Of a DNA stretch of 64,000 nucleotides, positions 5,048 to 61,411 are shown piece after piece. A model generated the notes under the pieces. It did not search any database. It saw only the letters and a program-made list of their open reading frames with translations, and had not been told where the DNA came from. The translations under genes and the position numbers were made by a program. Source of the DNA: an uncultured Lentisphaerales bacterium (GTDB lineage: Bacteria; Verrucomicrobiota; Lentisphaeria; JABSQK01; JAJFLO01); the NCBI GenBank assembly GCA_964615975.1, contig CAZTTH010000015.1, positions 4,265 through 68,264 of the forward strand, written 5' to 3'. The first letter of the stretch is position 1, and each line of letters begins with the position of its first letter.

Positions 5048-6139
5048 TTATCTGGTATTCATGAGTGAAATTTCCTTTTCCAAGCGGTGCGCCGAGTCGA
5101 TGGCAGTGATTTCCAGGATGAAATCTTCGATTTCACCTTCCATCACCCCAGGCAAATTAAAATGGGAGACACTGAAGCGATGATCGGTAACCCGGTTTTG
5201 CGGATAATTATAGGTCCGGATGCGCTCGCTGCGTTCACCGGTGCCGACTTGATTTTTCCGGTTGGCATCAAATTTCTCGCGTTCTTCGCGCTGTTTCTCT
5301 TCCAGAAGACGGGCGCGGAGTATACGGAGAGCAATTTCCTTGTTGCGATGCTGAGATTTTTCCTGCTGGCTGGCGACACTCAAGCCGCTGGGAATATGGG
5401 TCACGCGTACCGCCGAGTCGGTAGTATTCACACTTTGACCGCCGGGACCTGAGGAACGGAAAACATCGAAATGGAGATCTTCAGGATTAATTTTTATGTC
5501 AACATCCTTGGCTTCCGGTAACACCGCCACCGTCACTGTCGAGGTATGGATGCGGCCGGATGCCTCGGTGACAGGAACCCGCTGGACGCGATGGACACCG
5601 CTTTCAAGTTTCATCATCTTGAACACTGCGTCTCCTTCCAAACTGAACACCACTCCCTTGAATCCTCCCACTTCGGTTGAAGAGAGGTCGAGCACCTCCA
5701 TGCGCCATTTCTTCCGTTCCGATAATCGTGTGTACATGCGAAATAATTCGCTCGCGAACAAAGAGGCTTCATCGCCGCCGGCGGCAGGGCGAATTTCGAC
5801 AATGGTATTGCGTGAATCATTTTCGCCGGGAGGAAGAATCAGATTATAAACCTGGGTTTCGAGATGTTTGATTTCCACTTCAAGTTGAGCGATATCATTG
5901 CCGATCATCTCTTTCATTTCGTCATCGGTTTCATTCAGGATGAGGACTTGATTATCCGCCAACTCTTGTTTTTTTTTGCGGTAAAGTTGATCCGTGGTAA
6001 TCAAGTTTGTCAGCCGGATATGTTCCCGGGCGGTCTTTTCCGCGGTTTGACGATCCGAGTAAAAGTCAGGGCTTGCCATTCTCTGCTCGATGGCGATGAG
6101 ATTCTCACGGAGTTGATCAATTAGAGAAGAAACATCCAT
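5048..6139 (-). CDS. prfA: peptide chain release factor 1
   Basis: It has the GGQ motif (SSGPGGQSVNTTDSAVRVTHIPSG) and the RF1-type tripeptide region RVQRVPVTEASGRIHTS. I chose ATG 6139 (MDVSSLIDQL...). The track ORF begins at a TTG at 6184. Confidence 0.9.
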   Translation of the reverse strand: MDVSSLIDQLRENLIAIEQRMASPDFYSDRQTAEKTAREHIRLTNLITTDQLYRKKKQELADNQVLILNETDDEMKEMIGNDIAQLEVEIKHLETQVYNLILPPGENDSRNTIVEIRPAAGGDEASLFASELFRMYTRLSERKKWRMEVLDLSSTEVGGFKGVVFSLEGDAVFKMMKLESGVHRVQRVPVTEASGRIHTSTVTVAVLPEAKDVDIKINPEDLHFDVFRSSGPGGQSVNTTDSAVRVTHIPSGLSVASQQEKSQHRNKEIALRILRARLLEEKQREEREKFDANRKNQVGTGERSERIRTYNYPQNRVTDHRFSVSHFNLPGVMEGEIEDFILEITAIDSAHRLEKEISLMNTR

Positions 6140-6453
6140 ACCATTCTCAGAACCTGTAGAATAAATGATTGATGAATTGCTCAAGCAAGGTTTCAGTAAA
6201 TTTTCAGGCGAGGAAATGTCTCCACCCCGCTGATATCACGGCATGTCGTAATTTAACCGGATGCTCCGGGTATTTTCCGGAGATTTCTGGTTTAATTCTA
6301 TGATTCTGGTTGTTATAACTGCGGGGGAAATATCGACTCGAGATCCGCTGATCCCGAACCAACCTGAACCGACACGCGGGATAAACTCAGCTCACATCGT
6401 GTCGACAGAATAGTGCCATGGAGAACTGGTTGTCACCGAAAATAGTAATGCGA

Positions 6454-16530: not shown

Positions 16531-16615
<85 letters not shown>

Positions 16616-16650: not shown

Positions 16651-17583
16651 TTAACCGGGTTGGGTTTCCAACCATCGTTCAGCGTCGATTGCCGCCTGGC
16701 AGCCCATCCCTGCCGCGGTTACTGCCTGACGATAAACCCGATCAACGCAATCTCCCGCCGCGAAGACTCCGGCGATTTTGGTTCTGGTACTGCGCGCCTG
16801 GGTGATAATATAGCCGTCCGCATCCATGTCGATCAATCCTTTGAAGGGAGCGGTATTGGGGATATGGCCGATGGCGACAAAGACCGCGCCGCATTCGATG
16901 GTGCGCGTGGTTTCTGATTGGCTGTCACGGACCACCAACCCGGTTACTTTATCTTTTGCCGGATCCAAAATCTCCACCGGTATGCTGTTCCACGCGACTT
17001 CAATCTTATCATGCTCAAGCACCCGATTGGCCATGATTTTCGAAGCGCGAAACTGATCACGGCGATGAACGACGATCACTTTGGATGCGTAACGGGTTAA
17101 AAATAATGCTTCTTCCATGGCGGAATCACCGCCGCCAATCACCGCAATCGGCACGCCGCGAAAGAAAGCGCCATCACAGGTTGCGCACGACGAAACTCCG
17201 CGGTTTTTCAACTTGGTTTCCGATTCAATACCCAGCCACCGCGGATCCGCGCCGGTGGCGATGATCAACGCCTGAGTTTCAATCGTTTCACCATTATCCA
17301 ATTCAAGGACTTGAGGACCGCCATCCCGGCATTGTGCCGCTGTTACCTGAGCCGATTTGATGCGGCAGTCAAAGCGTTCAGCTTGAGCCCGCATTGCCTC
17401 CATCAAATCAAATCCCAACACCCCCTTGGCAAATCCCGGATAGTTTTCGACCTCACTGGTTTGAGTTAATTGTCCCCCCGGCAACGGGCCGGCAATGACC
17501 AAAGGGTTCAATACTGCTCGCGCGGCATAGATCGCGGCCGTATAACCCGCGGCGCCGGCGCCGATAATGGTAACTTTTTCCAT
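16651..17583 (-). CDS. trxB: thioredoxin-disulfide reductase
   Basis: MEKVTIIGAGAAGYTAAIYAAR carries the FAD site. The redox-active motif is CATCDG and the NADPH site is GGGDSAMEEA. The start is ATG 17583, preceded by GGGAGGA. Confidence 0.92.
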   Translation of the reverse strand: MEKVTIIGAGAAGYTAAIYAARAVLNPLVIAGPLPGGQLTQTSEVENYPGFAKGVLGFDLMEAMRAQAERFDCRIKSAQVTAAQCRDGGPQVLELDNGETIETQALIIATGADPRWLGIESETKLKNRGVSSCATCDGAFFRGVPIAVIGGGDSAMEEALFLTRYASKVIVVHRRDQFRASKIMANRVLEHDKIEVAWNSIPVEILDPAKDKVTGLVVRDSQSETTRTIECGAVFVAIGHIPNTAPFKGLIDMDADGYIITQARSTRTKIAGVFAAGDCVDRVYRQAVTAAGMGCQAAIDAERWLETQPG

Positions 17584-17874
17584 CTGAAATCCTCCCAAAA
17601 TAATACCCAAACTAAAATGCGATGAACCGAGGGTGAATGTCAATCTCCGATTTTTTGCCAAAGGGGTAAAAATTGCTGTCTTCTGTCTGATTTACAACCC
17701 CCAACTGAACAATAATCCCATGAAAATATGTTTAACTCTATTGACTATCTTCGGAAATCATTTCACAATAACGCCCTGAAGACTTAATATACCAACTAGG
17801 TACCGCTAGGTATCCTTAAACCACAAAATACCACAATCGAATATCAACTATGAAATTAGCAAGCAAGGTGAGCT

Positions 17875-19192: not shown

Positions 19193-21169
<1,977 letters not shown>

Positions 21170-23205: not shown

Positions 23206-24906
23206 CTATGGCAGCAATTGTAATTGTATCTGATCGATTCCAATGGCATCGCGGCATGAGAGCATCAGGGGTTGTGGCCCCGGTGATAACGTCCACTCGA
23301 ATGGCGCATCCACCCATTGCCATTGATTGTCGGTCGCGATCTGCCAATCCCTCCATTTCCGTTCTCCCATACGGGTGGTGATTATCCCGCCCGATGATCC
23401 TTGACGACAATGGAGACGCAACCGATACCGGCCTGCTTTCGCGATGTCGTATTCACAGAGAATCGTGCCATTCACAATCCATTTTATCCTGAAGTCATTT
23501 TTATCCGTTTCTATTGTTGCCGGTTGATAGCCATAATTTTGCAGTGTCATCGCACTGAGATTGATTACCATGGCGTCTTCGGCTTCAACGATTTGGCCGG
23601 GGGCATAGCGGTTCTGGCTTAAAGTCGACAGGCGTTTAATCCCCTCTTCCCGATAGCGTATGTCCGTGTTAACTTCACGGGTAATCGCCGCAACATCCTG
23701 CAAGCCATTGAGGTTAAAATAATGGAGGAGGTACTTGGCCACAAATTCATTGGCCAACATGCTGTAAAACACATACTCTCCGCGGCGGATATTTTCATTC
23801 AGGTTTTCCGTCATTTCAGGGAAAAAATGCCGCCGTGACTCCAGCACTGGTTCCCAGAGATCGAACCCATGTTGTAAATCGATATGGCGATAATGGTTAT
23901 CCTGACAATAATCGATCAGCGGCTGATAAATCCGTGGACGATCACCCCGGGCACGATCCCAATCAATTTTTCGCGGAAAAAACATCACCACCGGCAGCGC
24001 CTGATTTTTCAAGGCTAGTCGCTGAAATTCGTCCATGATCCGAATCGTCAGGTGATAGACATCGGAATCCGTCGATAACTGACCGTGGCGATAAATCGGC
24101 GGGGCCAGATAACGCCCTGGCAGGGTCAGGGCCAGTTGCCAAATCCCTATGGGCTTATGAAATTCTTCAAATGAGCGATGATAATGATAATCGTGCGCTC
24201 CGAGTGCAACATATTCAGAGCGTGGATTCTGGAGTAAATTCAGGTAGCTCGAAGGTGATGTAAAGGGATTCGGCATCAAGGTCAACATGCTTCCCTCATC
24301 CAAAGTATAGCGCGGTTTAGTCAATGGCATTCCGGTTCGATTATCGCAAAATGGCAGGAAAACACTCACCAGCCGATCAAGGTTGGCGGGTGTGATACCC
24401 AGTATCGCCACGTGATGCCCCCAGGCGCCAGCCTCCTGACGATACCGCAAAAAAGCCTGATCAGGTCCATAACCGTCGACCCCGAAATTCAGCACTTCAA
24501 AGCGGTGGTTGAGCATGCCGGTTATTTCCTGCCAGGTGCGGTTGTTCATGACAAAGCTGCCATGGGTCAAGCCATCACCGAAGGTCAGGATCCTGATGAT
24601 TCCCGGCGCCGGTGCGACCGGGTACTCACGAGCGGCGCGAATGCCGGCGCCATTGGACTGGAAAACCCGATTGTCGCCATTGGGTCTGACAGTCCAACCT
24701 AGTTCTGAGTTGAAGATGTAATAAGGATTTTTATCCTCCGCCCAATCACCCAGCCAGTCGGTATTCTGATCAAGAGTGACCTCGATTAACTTGCTCAGTG
24801 ATCGGCTGCGAGTATCCAAGCAATCCACAATCACCCATGAGATGGTCTCAATAAGAAGCACACCCAGGGCTATCCCGATGAGATAACGATATTTACTTTT
24901 CATCAT
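23206..24906 (-). CDS. membrane-anchored protein with an SGNH/GDSL-like hydrolase region and a C-terminal carbohydrate-binding-like beta-sandwich
   Basis: It has an N-terminal TM segment. ILTFGDGLTHGS...NFGVDGYGPDQ resembles SGNH blocks I/II. The last ~130 aa (GQIVEAEDAMV...GRYRLRLHCRQG...IDQIQL) resemble CBM6/35-type modules. The assignment is tentative. Confidence 0.5.
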   Translation of the reverse strand: MMKSKYRYLIGIALGVLLIETISWVIVDCLDTRSRSLSKLIEVTLDQNTDWLGDWAEDKNPYYIFNSELGWTVRPNGDNRVFQSNGAGIRAAREYPVAPAPGIIRILTFGDGLTHGSFVMNNRTWQEITGMLNHRFEVLNFGVDGYGPDQAFLRYRQEAGAWGHHVAILGITPANLDRLVSVFLPFCDNRTGMPLTKPRYTLDEGSMLTLMPNPFTSPSSYLNLLQNPRSEYVALGAHDYHYHRSFEEFHKPIGIWQLALTLPGRYLAPPIYRHGQLSTDSDVYHLTIRIMDEFQRLALKNQALPVVMFFPRKIDWDRARGDRPRIYQPLIDYCQDNHYRHIDLQHGFDLWEPVLESRRHFFPEMTENLNENIRRGEYVFYSMLANEFVAKYLLHYFNLNGLQDVAAITREVNTDIRYREEGIKRLSTLSQNRYAPGQIVEAEDAMVINLSAMTLQNYGYQPATIETDKNDFRIKWIVNGTILCEYDIAKAGRYRLRLHCRQGSSGGIITTRMGERKWRDWQIATDNQWQWVDAPFEWTLSPGPQPLMLSCRDAIGIDQIQLQLLP

Positions 24907-28000: not shown

Positions 28001-28253
28001 CTTGTGGCAGCCGCGACAAGCGGCGCACAATCACTACAAACGCGAGCGCCATGGCCAGCACAACCGCGCCAGCAGTCAGGTAGAATGCCGTTCCTTCTCG
28101 CGCCGGAAAAAAATAATCGGCCACGGAAAGAATAAACACCGGCGCGATAATGATCAGGAGCAGTTCGCTTCCCAGCCGGCACAGTTCACGGCGCCAGAGG
28201 AATCGCCTCTCTGTCGATAACCGATTAAGAAAAAGTGTCTGATTAATTTTCAT
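25026..28253 (-). CDS. large membrane-anchored protein with a long Q/E/K-rich coiled-coil C-terminal half (DUF4175-like)
   Basis: Length 1075 aa. There are three hydrophobic segments in the first ~170 aa, a beta-rich middle, then ~450 aa of low-complexity helical sequence rich in Q/E/K/A. The start overlaps the prfB stop by 11 nt. The family name is recalled, not searched. Confidence 0.7.
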   Translation of the reverse strand: MKINQTLFLNRLSTERRFLWRRELCRLGSELLLIIIAPVFILSVADYFFPAREGTAFYLTAGAVVLAMALAFVVIVRRLSRLPQDKDVAMLLEKSLPDLMDSLICAVEVAERHPAKRTELSQALLSTVEGDLERRNLRAAISAYAISCKRLMATLLAVTFLAAVVGMFSFIHKASDHAQSRFLAATPGIIVTPGNTEVAHGDDLIVEALIQRGEQHAQIVMLAKNGQFTYAMYTSESGKHSFAFAGVDDDFRYYVQTPRLRSPTYQVKTYEKARLTDCIITITPPEYTNLPRQHLTELKSITVPQHSQVRLELSTNLPVTTSVLIDHQPALVFTSKNDSLHHQLDLTIDQSFSYVIELMDKSEHRIITPESYHIESIDDFAPIIQVVAPEEDARRQIDREITFSFKVNDDYGVQSLHLHYSINGGVWHALELFHATGEQLNKEHLGAHVLNVIGQVKDGDIIAYYGSATDAAQPTANQAVTEVRFIEMRPAKIDAPEIGGMGQAQVKTLQVNDLIVAQKRLIRSTWSTHFMAEHDSRKEHLTDLKQMARDLTMTSANRYQELFGADFTSAPIADEPFDLVGTLLQNSVIDATIEKKTVLPSGSEKNVQKFFRAAIENMQQAESLLQRDLPDESSPYQRQSLSHLVTLAIELEKNTPKGKGSGGEGESEPRKDPVKEENQQKENAAKKNRMNEIAASMDKLIDRQERLNNDIARNSGESKSGETQKFLGAKQDQLRQDSEKLREKMMQEGETQSAATQMSEATRNMSQVSSHLEQGQMTNASKYGDLAHQFLQRAMKLVKDQQNRLANEALWKADKALDSLRERQHELRQKTTAQVEEKNPPYEGNELADQQQQIRDDFEQFLKNLGETANTSEASKPQIADELRAALAKAESANTSSTMKRAENAARYSLWNKASDYQAQAEQSLMQMAQHVQNAMRTATSMSPEQMTQMLQQVLRDIQKVQQAQEQQAAPEAMQQLYSAIQKDLQDITDLLNEPAMDQLAQEMTVTALSGRAGEAEVNEQVLTTLTKAARLLETKLTQSTVTEQLKMTRATGQEPPDEFKKLVQKYFTKIGSSF

Positions 28254-29359
28254 CAGAAGATTTCGTCTTTAAAAAAGATTCAATGAAATTGTCGATTTTT
28301 CCGTCAAGGACTCCGGCCGAATCACTGGTTTCTTCGCCAGTGCGCAGATCTTTGACCATCTGATAGGGATGGAGCACATACGAACGGATCTGGCTGCCCC
28401 AGGCATTTTCCTCCTTCGGACCCGTGGCATTCAATTTTTCCTCCTCCGCAGAGGCGAGTTGCCGCTCATACAGGCGTGAACGTAAGACACGCATTGCGGT
28501 CGCCCGGTTCTGATGTTGTGAGCGTTGATTCTGACAGGCGACAACAATGCCGGTCGGAATATGGGTGATCCGCACGGCGCTGTCGGTGGTATTGACATGC
28601 TGGCCGCCGGCGCCGCTGCTACGAAAGGTATCCATCTTGATGTCTTTTTCTTCAATCTCAATGTCGATGTCATCACTGATTTCAGGGGCTACCTCAAGGG
28701 CGGCAAAGGAGGTATGGCGCCTTTTGTTGCTGTCAAATGGGGAAATCCGCACCAGGCGATGGACGCCATTTTCGGAGCGTAAATATCCATAGGCAAAATC
28801 GCCGGTCACCATCAGAATGGCGTTTTTAATACCGGCCACTTCGCCCGGCTGCATGTCGATGATTTCTGTTTTGAAACCATTCCGTTCCGCCCAGCGAAAA
28901 TACATCCGAAACAACATCTGTGCCCAATCGCAGGATTCCGTGCCGCCCGAGCCGGGGTGAAAGGTGAGAATGGCATTGTTTTTATCGAATTTGCCCCCGA
29001 GAAAACTGACCAGTTCAAGCTTCGCTAGTTCCGCTTCGATTTCAGGCAGGGCTTTATCCGCATCGCCTAACAATTCTGAATCTTCGCCATCCTCCTGAAT
29101 TAATTCGACCAGCGCCAAAAAATCATTGAGATGTTGCTGCAATAAATTAAATGGATCCAGGATGGCGCGGCAGTGGCTGACCTTTCCCACTACTTCCTGC
29201 GCTTCCTCGCGATTATCCCAAAATCCCGGGGAACTCATTTTTTCCTGGAGTTCCCGCAAGCGATTTTGCACGGAGACGACATCAAAGATACACCTTTAAT
29301 TGTTCGAAGCGGTTCTTTAACTCCAGGGCATGTGTGCTTAAATCGTCCAAGGTAATCAT
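28243..29359 (-). CDS. prfB: peptide chain release factor 2 (requires programmed +1 frameshift at 29284)
   Basis: Frame 0 from ATG 29359 reads MITLDDLSTHALELKNRFEQLKVYL, then TGA. Frame +1 continues DVVSVQNRLRELQEKMSSPGFWDN...RISPFDSNKRRHTSF (SPF motif)...SGAGGQHVNTTDSAVRITH (GGQ). The total is 25+346 aa. Confidence 0.9.
29281..29297 (-). promoter_or_regulatory. prfB +1 frameshift (recoding) site
   Basis: The minus strand reads AAAGGTG TAT CTT TGA T. This is an SD-like AAGGTG placed 3 nt before the CTT-TGA slippery/stop pair, the same layout as the E. coli site AGGGGG TAT CTT TGA C. Confidence 0.85.
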
Positions 29360-31091: not shown

Positions 31092-32312
31092 ATGGAAGCA
31101 TATTCCATCATTTGTGCTGATGACGATGAACAGGCTCGTGAGTTGTACGTGAAGTTATTCACCCTGCGTGGGTATGACGTGCGCACTTGCGTCGATGGCT
31201 CTGAAGTCATCCCTGAATTCGAACGTCAGATCGCGGATTTATTTATCCTCGATGTTGATATGCCCAAGAAAAATGGCTTGCAACTCTGTCGGGAGTTACG
31301 ACGTCATCCCCAGGCGAATCAAGTGCCAATCATTGTCTGCTCGGCTTACGAATCCGAGGAAGTCATGGTCAAAGCGCTTAATGCCGGCGCTGACGATTAT
31401 ATCATCAAACCAACAAAAGTTGCGGAACTATATGCCAAAGTCGCTAAAGTATTGAAGAACAACCCCAAGATGAACAGGGGCGAAAAGGGATTGAAAATCG
31501 GCAATACATTTGCCGGAAAATATCGCATTATGACCCGGTTGGGCACTGGCGGCTTCAGTCAGGTATATAAGGCGGAGGATGTTTCCGCCACCCCACCCAA
31601 ATTAACGGCGTTGAAGATCTTTTCCTTTCACCAACATGAATGCGGCCCGGATTATATGGCGATGTTTTTGCGGGAAGCCTATGGACTATCCAAACTGGAT
31701 CATCCCAATATTATTCGCTTTTATGGATTTGGTGAAAATAATTCCCAATATTATCTCGCCATGGAGTATGCGGAAGGACAGTCAATACGACAAATCCTTG
31801 ATGAACGCGGCCCCATCCAGGAAAAAAAGGTGGCAATGCTTGCCTTCCATGTGCTGCAAGCTTTGAAATATCTCAAAAAATTCCAGATTGTGCACCGTGA
31901 CATCACTCCACATAATATATTGATTTTAGACAGCGGCGATGTCAAACTCATCGACTTCGGATTAGCAAAACCAGTCAAGGATGGGACCTTGACTCCCGAG
32001 GGCATGTTTGCCGGCAGCCCGCTTTATGCCGCTCCTGAGATCATTATGGATTCAACCCCGGATGTCGCCGCTGATATCTTTTCCCTGGGGGCCACAATGT
32101 ACACGATGATTACCAACACTCATCCGTTTCCCGGAAACACCCCATGGGAAATTTTCCAAAACCGCTTTGAAGCCAAACCACAGCCCGTTATCCAGGCGAA
32201 TCCTAATGTGAGCGTATCCATCTCCCTGCTTATCGAACAGATGATGGCATATGAAAAGGTATTGCGCCCCTCCCTCGACGCGATCGAAAAATCATTATTA
32301 AAATTATGTTGA
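31092..32312 (+). CDS. response-regulator receiver domain fused to a Hanks-type Ser/Thr protein kinase
   Basis: The REC part carries DDDE, the phospho-acceptor context FILDVDMP, and DYIIKP. The kinase part carries G-loop LGTGGFSQVY, ALKIF (VAIK Lys), catalytic loop HRDITPHN, DFGLAK and AAPE. Confidence 0.85.
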   Translation: MEAYSIICADDDEQARELYVKLFTLRGYDVRTCVDGSEVIPEFERQIADLFILDVDMPKKNGLQLCRELRRHPQANQVPIIVCSAYESEEVMVKALNAGADDYIIKPTKVAELYAKVAKVLKNNPKMNRGEKGLKIGNTFAGKYRIMTRLGTGGFSQVYKAEDVSATPPKLTALKIFSFHQHECGPDYMAMFLREAYGLSKLDHPNIIRFYGFGENNSQYYLAMEYAEGQSIRQILDERGPIQEKKVAMLAFHVLQALKYLKKFQIVHRDITPHNILILDSGDVKLIDFGLAKPVKDGTLTPEGMFAGSPLYAAPEIIMDSTPDVAADIFSLGATMYTMITNTHPFPGNTPWEIFQNRFEAKPQPVIQANPNVSVSISLLIEQMMAYEKVLRPSLDAIEKSLLKLC

Positions 32313-33119: not shown

Positions 33120-35246
<2,127 letters not shown>

Positions 35247-35340
35247 TTAATTTGTTTTGTTATGATTGAAATGTGCTATTAAAATTATGCATATACAAAA
35301 TAAATAATTATTATATTTTGTGATGAGAATAAACAATCAA

Positions 35341-36597
35341 ATGCCTACTCCAAAAAATGCGTTGGTAAGTTTGAAATCAATGACAACGGTTGTCGCTGAT
35401 ACTGGCGACATTGATGCCATTAAAAAATATACTCCAACCGACGCGACCACGAATCCATCTCTCCTTTACGCGGCTGCTCAAATGCCGCAATATAAACACC
35501 TTGTGGAAGATGCGATTGCATATGGACAGACAAAAGGTCGTACCGAGGCCCAAAAATTGTCTAAAACCATCGATCGATTATTTGTCAATTTCGGCCGTGA
35601 AATTCTTGCCATCGTACCCCGATTTGTTTCAACCGAAGTTGATGCCAGATTATCTTTCGATACTCGTGGATCAATAGACAAAGCGCGTGAATTCATCAAG
35701 TTATATAACGAGGTTGGGATCGGCAAAGATCGCATATTAATCAAATTGGCTTCCACCTGGGAAGGCATCCGCGCCGCCGCGACTTTGGAACAGGAAGGCA
35801 TACACTGCAATATGACTTTGTTGTTCGGCTTTGGTCAGGCTGTTGCCTGTGCCGAAGCCGGTGTTTTTTTAATTTCTCCCTTTGTGGGGCGTATTCTCGA
35901 TTGGCATAAGGAAAAAGAGAAGCGTGATTCATATACTCCAGACGAAGACCCTGGCGTCAAATCCGTGCGTAGAATTTATAATTATTATAAAAAATACGAT
36001 TATAAAACGGTGGTTATGGGCGCCAGTTTTCGCAACGTAGATGAAATCACCGCCTTAGCTGGTTGTGATTTATTGACTATCAGTCCTAAATTTCTGGAAT
36101 CTTTACAGAATAATACCATGACACTGCCACGCCTACTCTCACCCAAGCTGGCGGAAAAAAATTGCCGGGATTCAAAAATAAGCTTGGATGAAAAGGCATT
36201 CCGTTGGATGCTGAATGAAGATGCGATGGCAACTGAAAAATTGGCTGAAGGAATCCGTAAGTTTACGGAGGATGTAGTCAAACTAGAAACCCTCGTTAAG
36301 GAACGAGTAACAAAAGGGAGTACCATGAAAGCAAAAAAAACCACAACCAAAACCAACTCAGTAAAAGCGTCAGTTAAATCCAAAGCACCGGTCGCCGCTG
36401 CCAAACCTGTTGCCAAATCAACAGCCAAGCCCGCGGCAAAACCGGCGGCGAAACCCGCTGCCAAACCGGCCGCGAAACCCGCTGCCAAACCGGCCGCGAA
36501 ACCCGCTGCCAAGCCGGCCGCGAAACCCGCTGCCAAAGCAGCCGCAAAACCGGCGGCGAAACCCGCTGCCAAGCCCGCGGCAAAAGCAAAAAAGTAA
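35341..36597 (+). CDS. tal: transaldolase (TalB-type) continuing in frame into a ~90-aa KPAA-repeat basic tail
   Basis: [27 protein letters not shown]...[12 protein letters not shown] (Schiff-base Lys)...[13 protein letters not shown] identify the transaldolase. There is no stop before [14 protein letters not shown]...(KPAA)n...KAKK. Alternative starts are GTG 35320 and ATG 35323. Confidence 0.85.
36391..36588 (+). repeat. coding tandem repeat (12-nt unit, partly 24-nt period) encoding KPAA
   Basis: aaacccgctgccaaaccggccgcg is iterated. It translates to 12 KPAA units plus one KAAA. Confidence 0.85.
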
Positions 36598-37249: not shown

Positions 37250-40200
37250 ATGAGCGTAGGGTTGGTCACACCACATGGACGTTCTGCTGATGATTATGTG
37301 AGCCCGATATCACAAAAGACACCACCATCATTACCTGAAGACATCATCATGGATCTCTACCGCCACATGTTTACGGCCAGAGAGATTGACATGATGGAAG
37401 CTCAGTATGTAAAATCTGGTGATGCCTTTTTCCATGTATCAGGCGCTGGCCACGAATCGATAGCCGCACTTAATCCACATCTGATTCAGGACGACTGGCT
37501 GCATTGTCATTACCGGGATAAAGCGCTTATGCTAGCCCGGGGAATAACCCCTGAGCAGTTTTTTCTCAGCTTATTCGCCAAGGACGCTTCACACTCCCAA
37601 GGCCGGCAAATGAGCGCCCATATGAGTGATCGATCGCGAAATATTTTAAGTCTTGTCGGTCCGGTTGGCAACAACGCCTTGCAAGCAGTTGGGGTTGCTT
37701 GGGAAATCAGCGAACAAGCCAGTAAACCAATCGTAATCTGTTCTCTAGGTGACGGCACAACGCAACAAGGCGAGGTACTCGAAGCGATTGCCGAAGCGGT
37801 GCGCTGGGAACTCCCGGTATTATTCATTATTGAGGACAATCACTTTTCCATCTCCACCCGAACTGGCGGCAAGACCTTCTATTCTCATCCAGGTGGACAC
37901 CAGCCCGATGAGTTTTATGGACTTAAAATACACCGGATCGACGGTCGCGACCCGATACAGTGCCATCAGCATTTTGGCATTGTCGTAGACGAGGTGCGCT
38001 CAACCCGCGCTCCGGGATTAGTGATTATGGATGTTGAAAGATTGGTAGATCATACCAACGCGGATGATCAGCGTGTCTATCGCGAAACCGCGGATATTGA
38101 ACGTGCCAGAAGCGAATCCGATCCTATACCTCGACTAGCGCAGGCGCTGCTTTCCGCTGGAGTTAAGAAGAAAGCATTAAATACCCTTGAAGCTGATATT
38201 CGCAGTCAGGTAAGGGCAGCGGTGAGCCAGGCGCAAAACAGTCGGGATCCCCAACCGATGTTTGAGGCCAAGAAACCTTTGCCAAATAAATTTTATTCCG
38301 CCACATCAGAGTATACCGGCAACAGTGAAAAGCCGCGCCTCACCATGCTTGAGGCGATCAAGGAAGTATTTCGTCAGCGATTGCGTGAGGATCAGAAAAT
38401 CAACCTCTATGGGGAAGACATTGAGGACCCCAAAGGGGATGTCTTTGGACTTACTCGCAGCCTGACAGATGAGTTTCCAGGTCGCGTTCGTAATTCACCG
38501 CTTACCGAATCAACGATTGTGGGCGTCGCCATCGGACGGGCGCTGGCTGGAGGGAAATCTGTAGCTTTCCTGCAATTCGCTGATTTCCTTCCGCTCGCCT
38601 ATAATCAGATTCTTTCCGAACTGGGCTCGATGTACTGGCGCACTGGCGGCTCATGGCAATGTCCAGTGATTATCATGATTACATGTGGAGGATATCGGCC
38701 CGGGTTGGGACCATTTCATGCTCAAACCCTGGAAGCGATCGCAGCCCATACACCCGGAGTGGATGTCTTCATGCCTTCCAGCGCGGCAGACGCTGCCGGC
38801 TTACTCAACGCCGCCTTCGATTCCGGAAGACCAACTTTGTTTTTTTACCCGAAGAGCTGTCTCAACGACCATGGCGCGACAACCTCAGCTGATGTTCGGG
38901 AACAATTTGTTCCCCTAGGCAAGGCACGGATCGAAAAAAGCGGTAATGATTTAACCTTGGTCGCCTGGGGCAATACCGTCTCCCGCTGTCGACAGTCAGC
39001 CAAGATATTGGAATCAAAGGGCATACACTCAACGCTTATCGATCTACGCTGCCTCTCGCCATGGGATGAAGAAGCCGTTATTGACTCGGTGCGCAAGAGC
39101 CGGAAGTTGGTGGTGGCTCATGAGGACAATCAAACCTGTGGAATGGGTGCGGAAATTATTGCGGTGGTTGCCGAAAAAGCAGGTGTGCCAGTTGCGATCG
39201 CGCGTGTCACCAGGGCTGATACCTTTGTTCCTTTTAACTTCGCCAACCAACTTGAGATATTACCCTCATTCAAGCGCATTTTATCTGCCGCCGCCGGACT
39301 CTGCAATCTCGATATAGAATGGAAAAAACCAGCCACAGCACCTAGCAGCCAGGTAAACGTGGAAGCCATTGGCACCAGCCCTTCTGACGAAACCGCAACA
39401 ATTGTGCAATGGTGTGTGAAAATTGGCGACACAATTGAAAAAGGCACCAAATTAGCCGAAATCGAAGCCGAAAAATCGACTACCGAATTGCTGTCCTCGG
39501 TGGATGGGACTGTCACCACCATGCTCATTGAAGAGGGCACAACTGTAAAAGTGGGCACACCAATCATGAAGATTACCGTGGCCGATAGAGAACAACACCG
39601 CGTCCAACCGGTTACCAAAGAGGATCCTGGCACGCCCATTTTAAGACCACGGATACCTACAATCCTGGCAACGACAGATCCGCCGGATATCCGCGACACA
39701 CAGTCAACCACCGTCACCCTCCTGAGTGTGGAAACCGCGCTGGCTTCACGGATTGTCCCGAATCAGGAGATTTTGGTATCCTTCCCCGGCAAAAAACATG
39801 AAGACATCTTTAACAGCACGGGAATAAATCAACGCCGCTGGGTGGCTGATGGAGAAAACGCGTTGACACTCGCGGTGAAAGCGGCACGAAATGCCATTGC
39901 CCAGGCAGGCTTGTCCATATCCGACATTGACATGATTCTCTGCAGCACCACGACTCCTCTGGAAATTACCCCGGCATTGGCCTGCCGGTTACTTTATGAG
40001 CTGGCGGGAGATGATAGTGAGTGCCAGGCCCATGACATCCTCGCCGCCTGTTCAGGATATCTCTACGGCCTGCAAAACGCCTATGACTTTCTTCAATCCA
40101 GCCCCAGATCCAAGGTCTTATTAGTTACTTCCGAGGTGCTTTCACCGCTGATAGATCTCACCGATTTTAATACCGCCATTATCTTTGGAGATGCGGCCAC

Positions 40201-40672
40201 AGCCACCATCTTGGGCACAATAGACGGGAATGCTTCTGGTAAAATCCGCATTCATCGTCCGGTTCTGTCGGCACATGGAGAACCCGGGCGCCACTTGCGC
40301 GTGCCCTTGGGATCGGAAACCAACCGGGGATATATAGCGATGAATGGCTCCAAGGTTTATTCGGAGGGAATTCGGCGGATGATTGACATGCTTCAACGCG
40401 CCTGTGCCCAGCTTCATCTCGCACCCAAGAACCTTGACCTGGTCATTCCCCATCAAGCGAATGATCGTATTTTACAATCCATTCGCACTCGCCTCGATCT
40501 CCCGGAAGCCAAAGTCTTCAGTAATATTGCCAACATTGGTAATACCTCATCAAGTACGATTCCATTGTGCCTGAGTGAAATCATCCCCCAACGTCAGCCC
40601 GGGGAACATTGGGGATTAACGGCTTTTGGCGGCGGGTTTACTTTCGGCGCTTGTATTCTCGAAACGTTGTAA
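37250..40672 (+). CDS. fusion protein: 2-oxoacid dehydrogenase E1-alpha + E1-beta + lipoyl(biotinyl)-type domain + 3-oxoacyl-ACP synthase III (FabH-like)
   Basis: It is one uninterrupted 1140-aa ORF. Residues ~33-335 are E1-alpha with the ThDP motif GDG(167-169)-X27-N197. Residues ~362-690 are E1-beta (LTESTIVGVAIGRALAG, Transketolase_C-like end). Residues ~702-776 are the lipoyl-type domain with EIEAEK(742)STTEL. Residues ~821-1140 are KAS III with AAC(934)SGY, IPH(1068)QAN and IGN(1098)TSSSTIP. Confidence 0.85.
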   Translation: MSVGLVTPHGRSADDYVSPISQKTPPSLPEDIIMDLYRHMFTAREIDMMEAQYVKSGDAFFHVSGAGHESIAALNPHLIQDDWLHCHYRDKALMLARGITPEQFFLSLFAKDASHSQGRQMSAHMSDRSRNILSLVGPVGNNALQAVGVAWEISEQASKPIVICSLGDGTTQQGEVLEAIAEAVRWELPVLFIIEDNHFSISTRTGGKTFYSHPGGHQPDEFYGLKIHRIDGRDPIQCHQHFGIVVDEVRSTRAPGLVIMDVERLVDHTNADDQRVYRETADIERARSESDPIPRLAQALLSAGVKKKALNTLEADIRSQVRAAVSQAQNSRDPQPMFEAKKPLPNKFYSATSEYTGNSEKPRLTMLEAIKEVFRQRLREDQKINLYGEDIEDPKGDVFGLTRSLTDEFPGRVRNSPLTESTIVGVAIGRALAGGKSVAFLQFADFLPLAYNQILSELGSMYWRTGGSWQCPVIIMITCGGYRPGLGPFHAQTLEAIAAHTPGVDVFMPSSAADAAGLLNAAFDSGRPTLFFYPKSCLNDHGATTSADVREQFVPLGKARIEKSGNDLTLVAWGNTVSRCRQSAKILESKGIHSTLIDLRCLSPWDEEAVIDSVRKSRKLVVAHEDNQTCGMGAEIIAVVAEKAGVPVAIARVTRADTFVPFNFANQLEILPSFKRILSAAAGLCNLDIEWKKPATAPSSQVNVEAIGTSPSDETATIVQWCVKIGDTIEKGTKLAEIEAEKSTTELLSSVDGTVTTMLIEEGTTVKVGTPIMKITVADREQHRVQPVTKEDPGTPILRPRIPTILATTDPPDIRDTQSTTVTLLSVETALASRIVPNQEILVSFPGKKHEDIFNSTGINQRRWVADGENALTLAVKAARNAIAQAGLSISDIDMILCSTTTPLEITPALACRLLYELAGDDSECQAHDILAACSGYLYGLQNAYDFLQSSPRSKVLLVTSEVLSPLIDLTDFNTAIIFGDAATATILGTIDGNASGKIRIHRPVLSAHGEPGRHLRVPLGSETNRGYIAMNGSKVYSEGIRRMIDMLQRACAQLHLAPKNLDLVIPHQANDRILQSIRTRLDLPEAKVFSNIANIGNTSSSTIPLCLSEIIPQRQPGEHWGLTAFGGGFTFGACILETL

Positions 40673-40845: not shown

Positions 40846-41742
40846 TCAGGTCGCCTCAACGAGTTGATCGGGAGGCAATTCCAAGGTAATTCTGCCTAAT
40901 TTTCCACAGCGAAAATCCTGGATCAACGCGGTGGCGGCACGGCGCAGATCCGGGCGACTGTAGGCCATTAAAAATCCCCGATGTTGGCAAATGGCGGCTA
41001 AAAACGCATCATAATCAACTGGCGGGGTGGTTAGATTGTAGACTGATCGAATGCCATCGGGAGCGGATAAGCGACAGTGATCGAAGACGATTTTACCCGC
41101 GATCTCGGCGGGCACAATTTCTTCCTTGATAACTGCCAGAACCGCCAGTTTCACCCCCGTGTTTTGCGCTTCGATTCGTGGAAACATGACCCCGGGCGTA
41201 TCCAGCAACTCCAGATGATCATTGAGTTTGATCCATTGGGTTTGGCGCGTAACTCCCGGGAAAGGCGCCACCTTGGTCTTGCGTTGTCTGGTCAGCAAAT
41301 TGATCAGAGTTGACTTGCCAATATTGGGGACACCAACAATCATGATCCGGATTGATCGACGGGAACGAGCCACATTGGTTTTTGCCCGCATCAATTGGGT
41401 GGCTATTGTGGTCAAAAACGACAACAATTTAGCGATTGATGCCGGGCGATCTTTTTGGATGAACAAACAGATATGGGATTGGGATTGATAGTATGACTGC
41501 CATGCCTGGGTAGCGGCAGGATCAGCCAGATCACATTTACTCAGAACCGTGATGTGCCGTTGATTTTTTATCATCTCCCGCAAGCGCGGGTTGGTGGTGC
41601 TTGCCGGAGCTCGGGCATCGATGAGTTCCAATACAATATCAATCAACCGCAAGTGATTTTGGATTTCCCTTTCCGCCTTGAGCATGTGACCGGGATACCA
41701 GGAAATGGCTGGAGATTCAGGAACATGGTCAGACGGACTCAA
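40846..41742 (-). CDS. rbgA: ribosome biogenesis GTPase A (YlqF/RbgA, circularly permuted GTPase)
   Basis: WYPGHMLKAEREI is at the N-terminus. The motif order is permuted: SKCDLAD (G4) precedes VGVPNIGKSTLIN (G1) and DTPGV (G3). Confidence 0.85.
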   Translation of the reverse strand: MSPSDHVPESPAISWYPGHMLKAEREIQNHLRLIDIVLELIDARAPASTTNPRLREMIKNQRHITVLSKCDLADPAATQAWQSYYQSQSHICLFIQKDRPASIAKLLSFLTTIATQLMRAKTNVARSRRSIRIMIVGVPNIGKSTLINLLTRQRKTKVAPFPGVTRQTQWIKLNDHLELLDTPGVMFPRIEAQNTGVKLAVLAVIKEEIVPAEIAGKIVFDHCRLSAPDGIRSVYNLTTPPVDYDAFLAAICQHRGFLMAYSRPDLRRAATALIQDFRCGKLGRITLELPPDQLVEAT

Positions 41743-42900
41743 TCAATTATCACTTTCATCAAATAAATCACTTGGATTCCCGACCGGCGCTGGTGGGGTA
41801 GCAGGGGGTTTTGTATCACCGGCGGATGGTGGAGTTGGGGAAGAATTGCTCGCTGCCGGTTTATCGCTGGGGATGTCCGTCTCAAGCCATAGATCTGGAT
41901 TTTCAGGTTCATCAGTTCCACTGGTCTCCTCTGCATTGGTGGTAAGCGGTTTTCCTTCAGCCTCGGTTTTTTTATTAATGAATGCTTTGAACTTGGCTAA
42001 AAATGTCGTGTCTTTAGCTTCCTCTGAAACGTTTTTCGCGGCGACCTCCATATCCAATACCTGTTGGGGTATCCAGCCGCCTCTTTCCGGTATATTGACA
42101 TAGTTATTTTGTTTATATACTTTTTCCCTGATTTCCTGCCGCACACGTCGCATCTCTTTTTCGCGTGCCTTAGAATACTGATAGTTAAAAATATCCATCA
42201 CCGGCACCCATTTGTTGGTACGCCGATTATACAGATATCCGGCTTTTGTCCATACCTTGTTGGTCAGAGCATCCTGCGCTTTCTCGATGTATTCCTTGCG
42301 TTTTTCTTCGAACTTATGCACTTCACGCTGGACATAAATTCGGACCGCATCTTCATGATCGGCAAGAAACAATCGCGCCAAGTCATCCCGGGCAATATCA
42401 CGCTTCGGAATCGGAATGCTGCTGATCTTGATGATGTCATTCGAAACCACTTCCAGCAATCCCTTTACTTCCAACAACTGGTTGGCATAGTGACGTTGGA
42501 TGGTAACGGTTTCCCCGACTTTATACATTTTGAATTTTTCATCGGCGTCGTTCTTGATTTTTTCATAGGTCGCATCGGGGAAATGTTGATTGATCAATGC
42601 CTGGATTTCCTCCGCGATTTTAAGTTTAACCTGATCCACCGTCAAAACCGGCGGATAAATCGGGGGATTGAGTTTGATGCTGATAGCATAATCGTTGGGT
42701 TTTAATAGTTGATTTACCGCCTTGATGGTTTGTACTTCGATGTCAAAATCATAACGTTTCAGCTCGTCACTGTAATCGAAGATTGTAGGCGCAGCAGAGG
42801 ATTCAGGGATATCCTGATTGGCGCTTGCCAGGGAGATTAGCGCGATAAATCCACATGAAAGGACGGCGGCGAAGATTGAGAAATTTCTTTGGATTTGCAT
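41743..42900 (-). CDS. hypothetical secreted protein with a Pro/Thr-rich C-terminus
   Basis: The 385-aa ORF has a signal peptide (…FIALISLASANQD). Its stop abuts the rbgA start. No family recognised. Confidence 0.6.
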   Translation of the reverse strand: MQIQRNFSIFAAVLSCGFIALISLASANQDIPESSAAPTIFDYSDELKRYDFDIEVQTIKAVNQLLKPNDYAISIKLNPPIYPPVLTVDQVKLKIAEEIQALINQHFPDATYEKIKNDADEKFKMYKVGETVTIQRHYANQLLEVKGLLEVVSNDIIKISSIPIPKRDIARDDLARLFLADHEDAVRIYVQREVHKFEEKRKEYIEKAQDALTNKVWTKAGYLYNRRTNKWVPVMDIFNYQYSKAREKEMRRVRQEIREKVYKQNNYVNIPERGGWIPQQVLDMEVAAKNVSEEAKDTTFLAKFKAFINKKTEAEGKPLTTNAEETSGTDEPENPDLWLETDIPSDKPAASNSSPTPPSAGDTKPPATPPAPVGNPSDLFDESDN

Positions 42901-59165: not shown

Positions 59166-59347
59166 GGATTATCCTCTTTGAAAGAATGTGGTGGCCCGTT
59201 ATCAGGTTTTAACTATGATATTAATTTGGTTTTGAATCAACAACGGATTAACATATCCTTCTTATGTGGTGCTGCAATCAAGTTCAATCTTTAGATTACG
59301 GCTCATTTCACCTCAAAAATAAAATAAAATCAGCGTGGAGATTTATC

Positions 59348-59995
59348 ATGTATCGCAATCTAATATGGCTCATTTGCTTAATTTTATTCGTTTCAACCAG
59401 GCCAATCAATGGCGGGGAAACTCTGACATTGAATCGTCAGGAGGTAACGCGATTGATCAGCGATCAAATTCACATCGACGACCCCAACAAAATCACCGCC
59501 ATCCTTGATCGTATCATTGGCAATAAAGATTGGGAACCTTATGGATTTGTCTTGCCGGATAATGGCATCAGGGTGGATGTGATGAAAAATGAAATGACCG
59601 CGGGCACCTTCTGGATTCATGATCAGTCGATTTATTGCTTCCATCAGGACCGTTATGAAATACGGCGCATCTCCGCCGTGCAGAAAAGTCAAGTGGTTGC
59701 TTTGCTCGGGGTCGCCGGGAAAGCAAAAATTGCTCCTGGTGTCAGCGATCATAATCATTCTGTCCAGCTTGAGGAGAGCAGTCCAGGAAGCATAAAAACC
59801 GAGGTCAGCAAAGATGTCACGCTCGATTTCCTCATGGATGACAATGCCGCGCCCAATACCCTCAATCTTGACAATCTCGGTGGCGGCACCATCAACAATG
59901 TCCCCAACCGCCAACTGGAAGTCAAACCGCAGTTAAACAACGACGGGAATTTTGACTTGCACTTGGACGACATTGATCACATTGAAAAAAAATAA
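59348..59995 (+). CDS. hypothetical secreted protein
   Basis: ATG 59348 is preceded by GGAG. The signal peptide is MYRNLIWLICLILFVSTRPINGGE. No family recognised. Confidence 0.55.
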   Translation: MYRNLIWLICLILFVSTRPINGGETLTLNRQEVTRLISDQIHIDDPNKITAILDRIIGNKDWEPYGFVLPDNGIRVDVMKNEMTAGTFWIHDQSIYCFHQDRYEIRRISAVQKSQVVALLGVAGKAKIAPGVSDHNHSVQLEESSPGSIKTEVSKDVTLDFLMDDNAAPNTLNLDNLGGGTINNVPNRQLEVKPQLNNDGNFDLHLDDIDHIEKK

Positions 59996-60004
59996 GCCAT
60001 CATT

Positions 60005-61411
60005 ATGGAAAACAATAACGATTTGCCGTTGATAAAACCCCGCATTCGCCCGCCGCTCGATCCTTATTTTCGTCCGGCCTGCCTTGCCAATCGGGCTTTT
60101 CGCAAACACGTCTCAAAAACCGGTGAGGGGGTGCCGGTCTCACTGGCGCTGGAACGCCATCCCGGGTCGATCTCCCGCTTTGCCACCACGATTTTTCCGA
60201 TTAATCATCCCGAATCCAAGGGGAATTTCATCTATCTTGAGCGCCTGCTCAAATGTCTCCTCTGGTCGCGGGGGGGCAGCAAGCTGTATATTGCCGGACC
60301 GATTAATTTAATCCGGCGATTGCAAGCGCATTATACCCAGACCACCGCGGGAATTTTCGATGCCGACATGATGGGCAAGAAGATCTATCATCATCCCTTT
60401 ACCATCATTCCGGCAGCCGCGGATGAGTTGCCCGCGGCCTGCGAGCCGGCGGCGGCGTTGGGGCGGCATCTGGATGGTTGCCGCATCGGCTTTGATCTGG
60501 GCGCCAGCGACCGCAAGGCTGCCGCCATCATTGACGGCGAATGCATCCATAGCGAAGAAATCCCCTGGTTCCCGGCGTTGGAGAAGGATCCCCAATGGCA
60601 CTTCGACCAGATCATGGATTCGTTAAAAAAGGCAGCCGCGCATCTCCCGCACGTCGATGCCATCGGCGGCAGCGCCGCCGGGGTGTATGTGAAGAATCAG
60701 GTGCGTGTCGCCTCGTTGTTTCGCGGTGTGCCTGACGCGGTGTTCAAGGAACAGATAGGCCCCTTATTTCACAATCTCAAAAAGGCCTGGAATGATATTC
60801 CCTTCGAAGTTGTCAACGACGGTGAAGTCACCGCGCTGGCCGGCGCCATGGCATTGAACCGCAATGGCATATTGGGGATCGCCATGGGTTCCAGTCTCGC
60901 CGGCGGCTATGTGACCCAGGAAGGGACAATCACGGACTGGTTGAATGAGTTGTGTTTTGTCCCGGTTGACTATCATCCTGCAGCGGCGATCGATGAATGG
61001 TCGGGCGACTATGGCTGTGGCGTGAGGTACTTTTCCCAACAGGCAGTCGGCAGATTGATCCCGAAATCAGGACTGGAGATAGAAACGACCCTGCCGTTGC
61101 CCGAACAACTAAACAAGGTACAGCAAGCGATGGCGGCGGGTGATGAACGCGCGGCAGCGATTTATCACACCATTGGCGTTTACCTCGGGTATACCCTGGC
61201 GCATTACGCGGAATTCTATGACTTCAATTATTTACTCGTTCTTGGCCGGGTCATGACCGGCGCGGGAGGAGATCTGATCATTGACCATGCGCGACAAATT
61301 TTAAATGATGAATTTCCCGAACTCGCGCAAAAAATACACTTTCATTTTCCTGATGAAAAAGAAAAACGCCATGGCCAGGCGATTGCCGCGGCCAGTCTGC
61401 CGGTGATTTAG
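60005..61411 (+). CDS. ROK-family/ASKHA-fold sugar-kinase-like protein with a ~150-aa N-terminal extension
   Basis: RIGFDLGASDRKAA is phosphate-1-like. EVVNDGEVTALAGAM and GIAMGSSLAGGYV resemble ROK/glucokinase blocks. The substrate is unknown. Confidence 0.6.
   Translation: MENNNDLPLIKPRIRPPLDPYFRPACLANRAFRKHVSKTGEGVPVSLALERHPGSISRFATTIFPINHPESKGNFIYLERLLKCLLWSRGGSKLYIAGPINLIRRLQAHYTQTTAGIFDADMMGKKIYHHPFTIIPAAADELPAACEPAAALGRHLDGCRIGFDLGASDRKAAAIIDGECIHSEEIPWFPALEKDPQWHFDQIMDSLKKAAAHLPHVDAIGGSAAGVYVKNQVRVASLFRGVPDAVFKEQIGPLFHNLKKAWNDIPFEVVNDGEVTALAGAMALNRNGILGIAMGSSLAGGYVTQEGTITDWLNELCFVPVDYHPAAAIDEWSGDYGCGVRYFSQQAVGRLIPKSGLEIETTLPLPEQLNKVQQAMAAGDERAAAIYHTIGVYLGYTLAHYAEFYDFNYLLVLGRVMTGAGGDLIIDHARQILNDEFPELAQKIHFHFPDEKEKRHGQAIAAASLPVI

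Follow-up and report, generated by a model that had tools for sequence, protein, structure and literature searches.

The window analysed here is a stretch of 64,000 nucleotides from an uncultured Lentisphaerales bacterium (assembly GCA_964615975.1, contig CAZTTH010000015.1, positions 4,265 to 68,264), and its forward strand carries a gene (37250..40672) in which the two halves of a 2-oxoacid dehydrogenase E1 component, a lipoyl domain and a FabH-type beta-ketoacyl-acyl carrier protein (ACP) synthase III (KAS III) are fused in one protein of 1140 aa followed by a stop codon. An earlier note on this DNA, made from the sequence alone, had described the open reading frame (ORF) as single and uninterrupted, with the domain order E1-alpha/E1-beta/lipoyl/KAS III, and our Pfam scan bears this out. 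The E1-alpha module (37361..38257, residues 38-336; all features of the gene are given on the forward strand) matches E1_dh (8.7e-40, 137 bits against a cutoff of 22) and contains the thiamine diphosphate (ThDP) motif G167-D168-G169...N197 (37748-37840) and the catalytic His268 in HTNADD (38051-38053). The E1-beta module (38342..39256), whose best matches in the PDB are E1-beta subunits, is composed of a pyrimidine-binding domain (residues 365-538; Transket_pyr, 8.3e-23, 81.4 bits against a cutoff of 27) and a C-terminal domain (residues 557-669; Transketolase_C, 2.1e-29, 102.4 bits against a cutoff of 25.9), and holds the ThDP-activating Glu420 (38507-38509) and His490 (38717-38719). A first linker (39305..39367, residues 686-706) leads to the lipoyl domain (39368..39574, residues 707-775; Biotin_lipoyl, 2.7e-15, 56.4 bits against a cutoff of 22.1), which NCBIfam matches to the lipoyl regions of E2 proteins; the predicted lipoyl-lysine Lys742 (39473-39475) lies in EIEAEKS, and the biotinyl motif (A/V)MKM is absent. 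After a second, Pro/Thr-rich linker (39575..39709, residues 776-820), which the earlier note had also pointed out, comes the KAS III domain (39710..40669, residues 821-1140), with matches to ACP_syn_III (residues 929-992, 4.6e-18) and ACP_syn_III_C (residues 1053-1138, 3.9e-24). It passes the cutoff of the NCBIfam FabH model PRK09352 (262.7 bits against 249, residues 821-1138) and stays under that of TIGR00747 (238.9 against 292.1). Its catalytic triad is formed by Cys934, His1068 and Asn1098 (40049-40051, 40451-40453 and 40541-40543), and these residues, the ThDP motif and Lys742 are all found where the earlier note had placed them. That note had further held that the protein has no E2 acyltransferase domain, in agreement with which neither 2-oxoacid_dh (PF00198, E2 catalytic) nor E3_binding gave a Pfam match anywhere in the 1140 aa. 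The true start may be Met34 (37349) instead of Met1, because residues 1-37 are unconserved and residues 1-24 are disordered in the structural model.

The fusion is not restricted to this genome. A search of 5.8 billion proteins, clustered at 90% identity, retrieved at least 120 clusters of 1089-1214 aa with the identical domain set and 51-61% identity over 95-100% of the query, and an exhaustive search against 1.84 billion representatives of clusters at 50% identity yielded ~45-50 full-length fusion clusters, with identity to the query down to 37%. Overall the fusion is spread over Planctomycetota, Kiritimatiellales/Verrucomicrobiota, Lentisphaerae, Spirochaetes and a few others. In species-representative genomes it was found at 18 loci from several phyla, carried on the Verrucomicrobiota side by Kiritimatiellales, Pontiella, Pontiellaceae and other Verrucomicrobiota, and elsewhere by Pirellulales, Rhodopirellula, Planctomycetaceae and Spirochaetia as well as by single metagenome-assembled genomes (MAGs) of Gammaproteobacteria and Burkholderiales; a Gloeobacteraceae gene is truncated at the contig end. 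The source names of the clusters add Gemmataceae, Lentisphaeraceae, Xenococcus and candidate division KSB3, and the closest named relative among the representative genomes is a Planctomycetaceae MAG (57% identity); ranking by identity would thereby point to a planctomycete as the probable source of the DNA. An AlphaFold2 model built with 75 homologues has a mean predicted local distance difference test score (pLDDT) of 89.3 and a predicted template-modelling score (pTM) of 0.69, with disorder limited to residues 1-24 and 804-816, and its KAS III part superimposes on E. coli FabH (1hn9; Foldseek) with a TM-score of 0.93 and a root-mean-square deviation of 2.1 A. The full-length colinear clusters, the 18 loci and the confident fold model rule out an assembly artefact or several adjacent genes, a reading for which the earlier note had allowed (two to four genes); full-length conservation across phyla indicates one gene. 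Although the architecture is widespread, its members bear unspecific automatic names ('beta-ketoacyl-ACP synthase 3', '2-oxoisovalerate dehydrogenase E1 component', 'transketolase'), which do not amount to the established coenzyme A (CoA)-dependent role that the same note had considered, and full-text searching of the literature revealed no role assigned to it. Two proteins that looked like alternative arrangements, a lipoyl-KAS III protein with a non-E1 N-terminus (P0222) as a split version and a 340-aa KAS III with the signature of the fusion (P0234) as a stand-alone version, both begin at contig edges and are uninformative.

Residue conservation was counted in two sets, 120 close homologues and 37 divergent representatives. 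In the E1 part, G167, D168, G169, N197, His268, Glu420 and His490 are invariant in both (120 and 37/37); their roles in ThDP binding, in activation of the cofactor (the Glu) and in reductive acylation (the two His) we take to be those of the homologous residues of the E1 of Geobacillus pyruvate dehydrogenase (PDH) and the human branched-chain 2-oxoacid dehydrogenase (BCKDH). The lipoyl-lysine is present in 120/120 close and 36/37 divergent homologues, and most have the canonical motif E-A-D-K-A, of which E-A-E-K-S in the window is a minor variant. The first linker is short and near-constant in length (19-22 residues in each of the 120 homologues) and ordered in the model, with beta strands at 687-692 and 701-705, while the second ranges from 38 to 67 residues across the family. 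The latter contains a motif, KP(V/I)TxExPGxP(V/I)L (39608-39649, residues 787-800), that is conserved in the closer clade and weaker in distant members and that may be a docking element. The same motif is common to relatives that have a thioesterase or an E2 catalytic domain in place of the KAS III domain. In the model a strand at residues 795-800 (pLDDT ~86) is followed by residues 804-816 at pLDDT < 50, and this disordered segment would therefore provide a flexible tether for KAS III beside the lipoyl domain.

Mapping of the KAS III domain onto E. coli FabH (sequence identical to PDB 1hn9) points to an altered CoA site and a retained ACP site. Cys934 is found in 120/120 close and 37/37 divergent homologues, His1068 in 120/120 and 36/37 and Asn1098 in 120/120 and 37/37, and the Gly-rich oxyanion loops are invariant in the fusions, so that orthologues lacking Cys934, one of the two losses that the earlier note had thought damaging, were not seen in either set; the other, loss of Lys742, was seen in one of the 37 divergent representatives. 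At the position of the ACP-docking Arg249 (Arg1073 in the window, 40466-40468) there is Arg in 119/120 close homologues and in 33/37 divergent ones, with Lys in 3 more, and the Lys257 position is Arg or Lys in 116/120 fusions. In E. coli FabH the adenine of CoA is sandwiched between Trp32 and Arg151. The PDB contains structures of the M. tuberculosis FabH mutants W42A/R161A and R46A/R161A, and M. tuberculosis W42, R46 and R161 (in its own numbering) presumably correspond to E. coli W32, R36 and R151. Both clamp residues are present in the FabHs of E. coli, B. subtilis, S. aureus, Aquifex, V. cholerae and H. influenzae, and in 120/120 further canonical FabHs retrieved by profile, a taxonomically narrow set made up mostly of Bacillales (median pairwise identity 78%). 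Among the 120 fusions, 109 have Asp or Glu at the Trp32 position and none has Trp (Asp852 in the window, 39803-39805), and at the Arg151 position there is Phe in 63, Pro in 35 and another residue in the rest, never Arg (Phe973, 40166-40168); the divergent fusions have Trp at the former position in 2/37 and Arg at the latter in 0/37. Arg36 was dropped as a third marker of the CoA site, since the position varies among the canonical FabHs (Arg 76, Met 44) as it does among the fusions. Taken from the alignment, the CoA-adenine clamp is specifically lost in the KAS III domain and the ACP-docking arginine and the catalytic triad are kept, and the changed residues would lie at the mouth of the pantetheine tunnel, where the hairpin of a lipoyl domain would need to dock. 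A further change concerns Phe87, which in FabH caps the primer pocket. This position is Thr in 111/120 fusions (Thr907 in the window, 39968-39970) and Phe in 120/120 of the controls, which suggests room for primers beyond acetyl size.

Evidence of another kind comes from relatives in which a different domain follows the lipoyl domain. These are further matches of the exhaustive search of 50%-identity representatives and have the E1-alpha-beta-lipoyl chassis in common with the fusion, post-lipoyl motif included. An E2 catalytic domain occupies the slot in P0150 (54% identity), with a DHR in the sequence that we read by eye as a DHRxxDG-type catalytic motif, and in P0179, P0184, P0195, P0199, P0200, P0207, P0209 and P0223 (32-39% identity). 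In P0211 (35% identity) an E2 catalytic domain is followed by a phosphopantetheine-binding (ACP) domain, and in P0188 (2895 aa, 44% identity) the same pair precedes ketosynthase, methyltransferase, condensation and adenylation domains and is, as judged from this order, a loading cassette for a polyketide synthase/non-ribosomal peptide synthetase (PKS/NRPS). P0142 (57% identity) has a thioesterase domain. In P0137 (59% identity) ~230 residues follow the lipoyl domain, and a match to GNAT was set aside as a hint only, since it is sub-threshold (E=0.019, 16 bits against a cutoff of 25.4). P0133 (49% identity; 1942 aa, a complete gene on a 63-kb contig) has KAS III followed by ketoreductase (KR) and ACP domains, which would tie the product of the KAS III to ACP and to ketoreduction. 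The slot after the lipoyl domain is thus predicted to be one for a swappable acyl acceptor, each occupant of which normally acts on a thioester. These swaps together with P0133 form, in our view, the strongest comparative argument that KAS III is acylated in cis from the arm and that condensation takes place on ACP. Single-chain E1-alpha-beta-lipoyl proteins with a varying C-terminal acceptor apparently constitute a wider and undescribed class.

From the conserved residues and the domain swaps, we consider it fairly probable that the fusion is a self-contained primer-forming enzyme of type II fatty-acid synthesis, in which the lipoyl arm hands the acyl group directly to KAS III and no acyl-CoA is formed; the term 'CoA-independent' is derived here solely from the sequence of the binding site. 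The fused E1 would decarboxylate a 2-oxoacid on ThDP and then reductively acylate a lipoyl group carried by Lys742 in the lipoyl domain of its own chain. The S-acyl-dihydrolipoyl arm would take the place of the pantetheine of acyl-CoA in the KAS III tunnel and acylate Cys934, after which His1068/Asn1098 would decarboxylate malonyl-ACP docked at Arg1073, and its condensation with the acyl group would yield a 3-oxoacyl-ACP. The dihydrolipoyl group would finally be re-oxidized by a trans-acting dihydrolipoamide dehydrogenase (E3) or by another oxidant encoded elsewhere. Such an arrangement has a parallel in the glycine-cleavage system, whose L-protein reoxidizes the lipoyl group of H-protein without a docking domain. 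The net reaction would be 2-oxoacid + malonyl-ACP + oxidant to 3-oxoacyl-ACP + 2 CO2, without free acyl-CoA. With alpha and beta in one chain, the fused E1 is presumably a homodimer equivalent to alpha2beta2. E1 (alpha2beta2) and FabH each have two-fold symmetry, which a homodimer of the fusion can provide for the two parts alike.

The candidate substrates are pyruvate and/or branched-chain 2-oxoacids such as 2-oxoisovalerate. NCBIfam ranks PDH E1 equivalog models first, and these, like the other E1 equivalogs, are all far under their cutoffs (PDH models, 177 vs 411 and 224 vs 454); when the E1-alpha module is compared with solved structures the scores are 120 bits for the Thermus branched-chain E1, 93 for human BCKDH, 80 for human PDH and 71 for Geobacillus PDH. 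If 2-oxoisovalerate supplies an isobutyryl primer, an even-numbered iso pattern of fatty acids is to be expected. The fatty acids of the cultured Kiritimatiellae (Kiritimatiella, Pontiella) are i-C12:0, i-C14:0, i-C16:0, i-C18:0 and C18:0 (PMC5148204, PMC7356697); Kiritimatiella is reported to form no odd-numbered fatty acids (PMC5148204), and none are among the major fatty acids of Pontiella (PMC7356697). The even iso-fatty acids of the cultured Kiritimatiellae fit 2-oxoacid priming as circumstantial evidence, the genomes in which the fusion was found being MAGs of Pontiella and Kiritimatiellales. Planctomycetes mostly make straight-chain fatty acids, and so the substrate specificity may differ between lineages.

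A different view of the same architecture is that the parts are merely co-localised, so that E1 and the lipoyl domain feed a separate E2 core and KAS III uses the free acyl-CoA released from it as an ordinary FabH. The route from Bkd to FabH via acyl-CoA is after all a known way of branched-chain priming, Trp persists at the Trp32 position in two of the divergent members and our search for E2 covered the 64-kb window and the flanks of ~20 loci. No E2 gene adjoins the fusion at any of those ~20 loci, however, and there is no known means by which a lipoyl domain that sits on E1, with no peripheral-subunit-binding domain, could engage an E2 core. The clamp, which every canonical FabH examined possesses, is systematically absent, and this also speaks against use of free acyl-CoA, and the thioesterase and E2 relatives show an acceptor that acts in cis on the lipoyl arm, all of which makes this view unlikely. 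That KAS III lies in the exact slot taken by the E2 catalytic domain in those relatives could also be read as meaning that it is a surrogate E2, a transacylase that moves the lipoyl-bound acyl group onto Cys934 and from there to CoA or holo-ACP, which would make the protein a minimal 2-oxoacid dehydrogenase forming acyl-CoA or acyl-ACP. FabH does have an acetyl-CoA:ACP transacylase side activity, and its first half-reaction is reversible in principle. A pure acyltransferase needs none of His1068, Asn1098 and the oxyanion loops, yet all are invariant; the lost clamp speaks against CoA as the acceptor, the domain scores above a curated FabH cutoff, and the KR and ACP domains after the KAS III of P0133 are sensible only with a 3-oxoacyl product. 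A transacylase is therefore a distinctly unlikely explanation.

It is also conceivable that the chemistry is exactly as we propose and that the product goes into some specialised lipid or polyketide-like compound and not into the bulk of the membrane fatty acids. Relatives on the same chassis occur within PKS/NRPS proteins (P0188) or with their own KR-ACP (P0133) or ACP (P0211), and M. tuberculosis FabH, which accepts larger acyl groups, has Thr at the bottom of the primer pocket in place of Phe87, as do 111/120 of the fusions. The present copy and those in two complete genomes stand in housekeeping surroundings, with no biosynthetic cluster and no conserved neighbours, and a single-gene family spread across whole phyla does not look like specialised metabolism, so that we regard this destination as quite improbable. 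The earlier note had left the choice between a fatty-acid and a polyketide-like role open; for this copy the latter is not favoured. Its central proposal, that the lipoyl arm passes its acyl group straight to KAS III, is strengthened by the predicted loss of the clamp, with the ACP site and triad kept, and by the acceptor swaps.

Several observations weigh against direct transfer. Loss of the clamp implies a remodelled tunnel mouth and is no proof that CoA thioesters are excluded, and the Trp is not lost altogether, as the two divergent fusions with Trp at the Trp32 position demonstrate. The control FabHs represent a narrow part of bacterial diversity, and the comparison was drawn with canonical FabHs; other KAS III-like enzymes that use CoA (PqsD, BioZ, V. 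cholerae FabH2) may lack the clamp as well. The position of Lys742 is Asn in P0135, a 50%-cluster representative. In a Planctomycetaceae MAG (locus L015; JBDNHX010000302.1, 8100-8700) a frameshift and a deletion of ~40 residues remove the lipoyl-lysine hairpin, this copy being either a decayed gene or a misassembly. Finally, no E3, lipoate ligase or lipoyl synthase gene was found near the fusion gene in the flanks of the ~20 loci.

The surroundings of the gene in the window are those of a housekeeping locus. It is flanked by an NAD-dependent DNA ligase (33120-35237, reverse strand) and a transaldolase (35320-36597, forward strand) on one side and by a convergent GTPase of the ribosome-associated type (40846-41742, reverse strand) on the other, and elsewhere the window contains argG, ychF, pnp, recD, hemA, xerC/D-like and glycogen-debranching genes, a TonB receptor and sensor kinases, among others. 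As the earlier note had observed, the 64-kb window holds no E2 or E3 gene: E2 was detected neither by a Pfam scan of all ORFs long enough nor by tblastn with two E2 catalytic domains, and an Lpd probe for E3 matched only weakly (E=0.001) a pyridine-nucleotide-disulfide oxidoreductase of 336 aa (16651-17661, reverse strand) that has the size of a thioredoxin reductase and is not an E3. The only tRNA gene in the window, tRNA-Leu(GAG) (16531-16615, reverse strand), adjoins this oxidoreductase. The gene thiC, for thiamine pyrimidine synthase (19202-21169, forward strand), lies 16 kb upstream of the ThDP-dependent fusion; nowhere in the window did a match to the thiamine pyrophosphate (TPP) riboswitch attain the Rfam gathering score, no riboswitch or other RNA element upstream was matched by Rfam near the fusion gene, and promoter- and terminator-like sites near it occur at chance level. 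Two class-I release factors (PCRF + RF-1; 5048-6184 and 28243-29271, both on the reverse strand) are presumably prfA and prfB. An unusual fusion of a response-regulator receiver and a Ser/Thr protein kinase in one chain is encoded at 31092-32312 (forward strand), and four sizeable ORFs (566, 385, 243 and 468 aa; 23206-24906 and 41743-42900 on the reverse strand and 59264-61411 on the forward strand) have no Pfam match at E <= 0.001.

The orthologues in two complete genomes also stand by themselves, surrounded by unrelated genes, and all-vs-all clustering of the ORFs at ~20 loci, in which no neighbour is common across phyla, rules out a conserved gene neighbourhood. A GAF-PtsP (EI-Ntr-like) gene lies divergently upstream at six loci of Kiritimatiellales/Verrucomicrobia (L001, L002, L004, L005, L007 and L013), and AmtB and P-II are nearby in several of these, all three being nitrogen-regulation genes. 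This synteny is confined to a related subset and probably reflects shared ancestry, not function. A lone gene amid housekeeping genes is what would suit a housekeeping enzyme that is sufficient by itself.

Two ways to initiate fatty-acid synthesis in bacteria are in the textbooks, with an acyl-CoA primer (FabH, FabY) and by the decarboxylation of malonyl-ACP. If the proposed mechanism is correct, the hand-off from lipoyl arm to ketosynthase would be a further route of initiation, and the swinging arm would gain a type of partner that is new for lipoyl. We would put at about even the chance of a broader proposition, namely that much of the Planctomycetes-Verrucomicrobia-Chlamydiae (PVC) superphylum and many spirochaetes start their fatty acids with one protein, from 2-oxoacid to 3-oxoacyl-ACP via lipoyl, and that the chassis is a general CoA-independent module for acyl delivery to a ketosynthase, a thioesterase, an E2 catalytic domain with ACP or possibly a GNAT. 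On that broader view lipoyl would join CoA and phosphopantetheine as a third acyl carrier of biosynthesis. The thioesterase, E2-ACP and PKS-loading variants do suggest a wider, unstudied class of enzymes. Direct transfer could also explain primers derived from amino-acid-derived 2-oxoacids in the lineages that carry the gene, including the fermentative Kiritimatiellae. The annotations 'FabH' and '2-oxoisovalerate dehydrogenase E1' would then have to be corrected for hundreds of genes, which matters for metabolic reconstructions, and those who engineer the production of branched or unusual fatty acids from 2-oxoacids would have a compact part encoded by one gene that does not compete for the CoA pool.

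A full-text search of the literature returned no description of an E1-lipoyl-KAS III fusion or of the E1-alpha-beta-lipoyl-X class. Candidatus Organicella, with a tiny verrucomicrobial genome in which a PDH is kept 'solely for fatty acids' and FabH is missing (PMC8204192), was considered as a parallel and rejected as unrelated, since the supplement lists split PdhA, PdhB, PdhC and LpdA. The protein in the window appears to be a 2-oxoacid dehydrogenase with a ketosynthase in place of the E2 catalytic domain, plausible in mechanism and broad in phylogenetic reach. By Pfam it lacks both the E2 catalytic and the peripheral-subunit-binding domains that an E1-E2-E3 complex requires. Its nearest functional counterpart, the Bkd/PDH + FabH route that forms the branched-chain primers of Bacillus, Staphylococcus and Listeria, likewise combines an alpha/beta ThDP E1, reductive acylation of a lipoyl-lysine and condensation of the acyl group with malonyl-ACP by a KAS III, but does so with separate proteins, an E2 core and an acyl-CoA intermediate, whereas the fusion is one chain with neither E2 core nor subunit-binding domain. 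The Bacillales FabHs keep Trp32 and Arg151 (120/120), unlike the fusion, in which the clamp is lost. With E. coli-type FabH (PDB 1hn9/1hnj) the KAS III domain has in common the fold (TM 0.93), the Cys-His-Asn triad, the oxyanion loops and Arg249, at ~30% identity. It differs in not being a free-standing dimer, in the replacement of Trp32 by Asp, Arg151 by Phe and Phe87 by Thr and, if the proposed donor is right, in using a protein-bound dihydrolipoyl thioester instead of acyl-CoA.

Also close are the single-chain E1-alpha-beta-lipoyl-E2(-ACP) relatives described above, with which the chassis, including the post-lipoyl motif, is common at up to 54-57% identity; their acceptor is a thioesterase or an E2 acyltransferase that serves CoA or a fused ACP, and that of the fusion a condensing enzyme. 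We know of no publication on such single-chain E2 proteins. The actinobacterial OdhA/Kgd proteins, in which an E2o-like acyltransferase domain is fused to E1o, are a precedent for joining E1 and an acyl-acceptor domain in one chain. They differ from the fusion in being of the homodimeric E1o type, in borrowing the lipoyl domain of another protein and in having a normal E2 domain that forms succinyl-CoA. The system that supplies the C2 unit of quinocarcin and naphthyridinomycin (QncN/QncL/QncM), work attributed to Peng et al., PNAS 2012, reportedly lets a ThDP enzyme load a lipoyl arm whose acyl group passes to ACP without CoA. This system is a precedent for CoA-independent use of the lipoyl arm in biosynthesis, but is reported to be a multi-protein system of a secondary-metabolite cluster that draws on a ketose-phosphate donor and delivers to ACP via an E2-like domain, with no ketosynthase that takes the acyl group from lipoyl. 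In the fusion, by comparison, a single chain would carry the acyl group from a 2-oxoacid via its own lipoyl arm to a ketosynthase.

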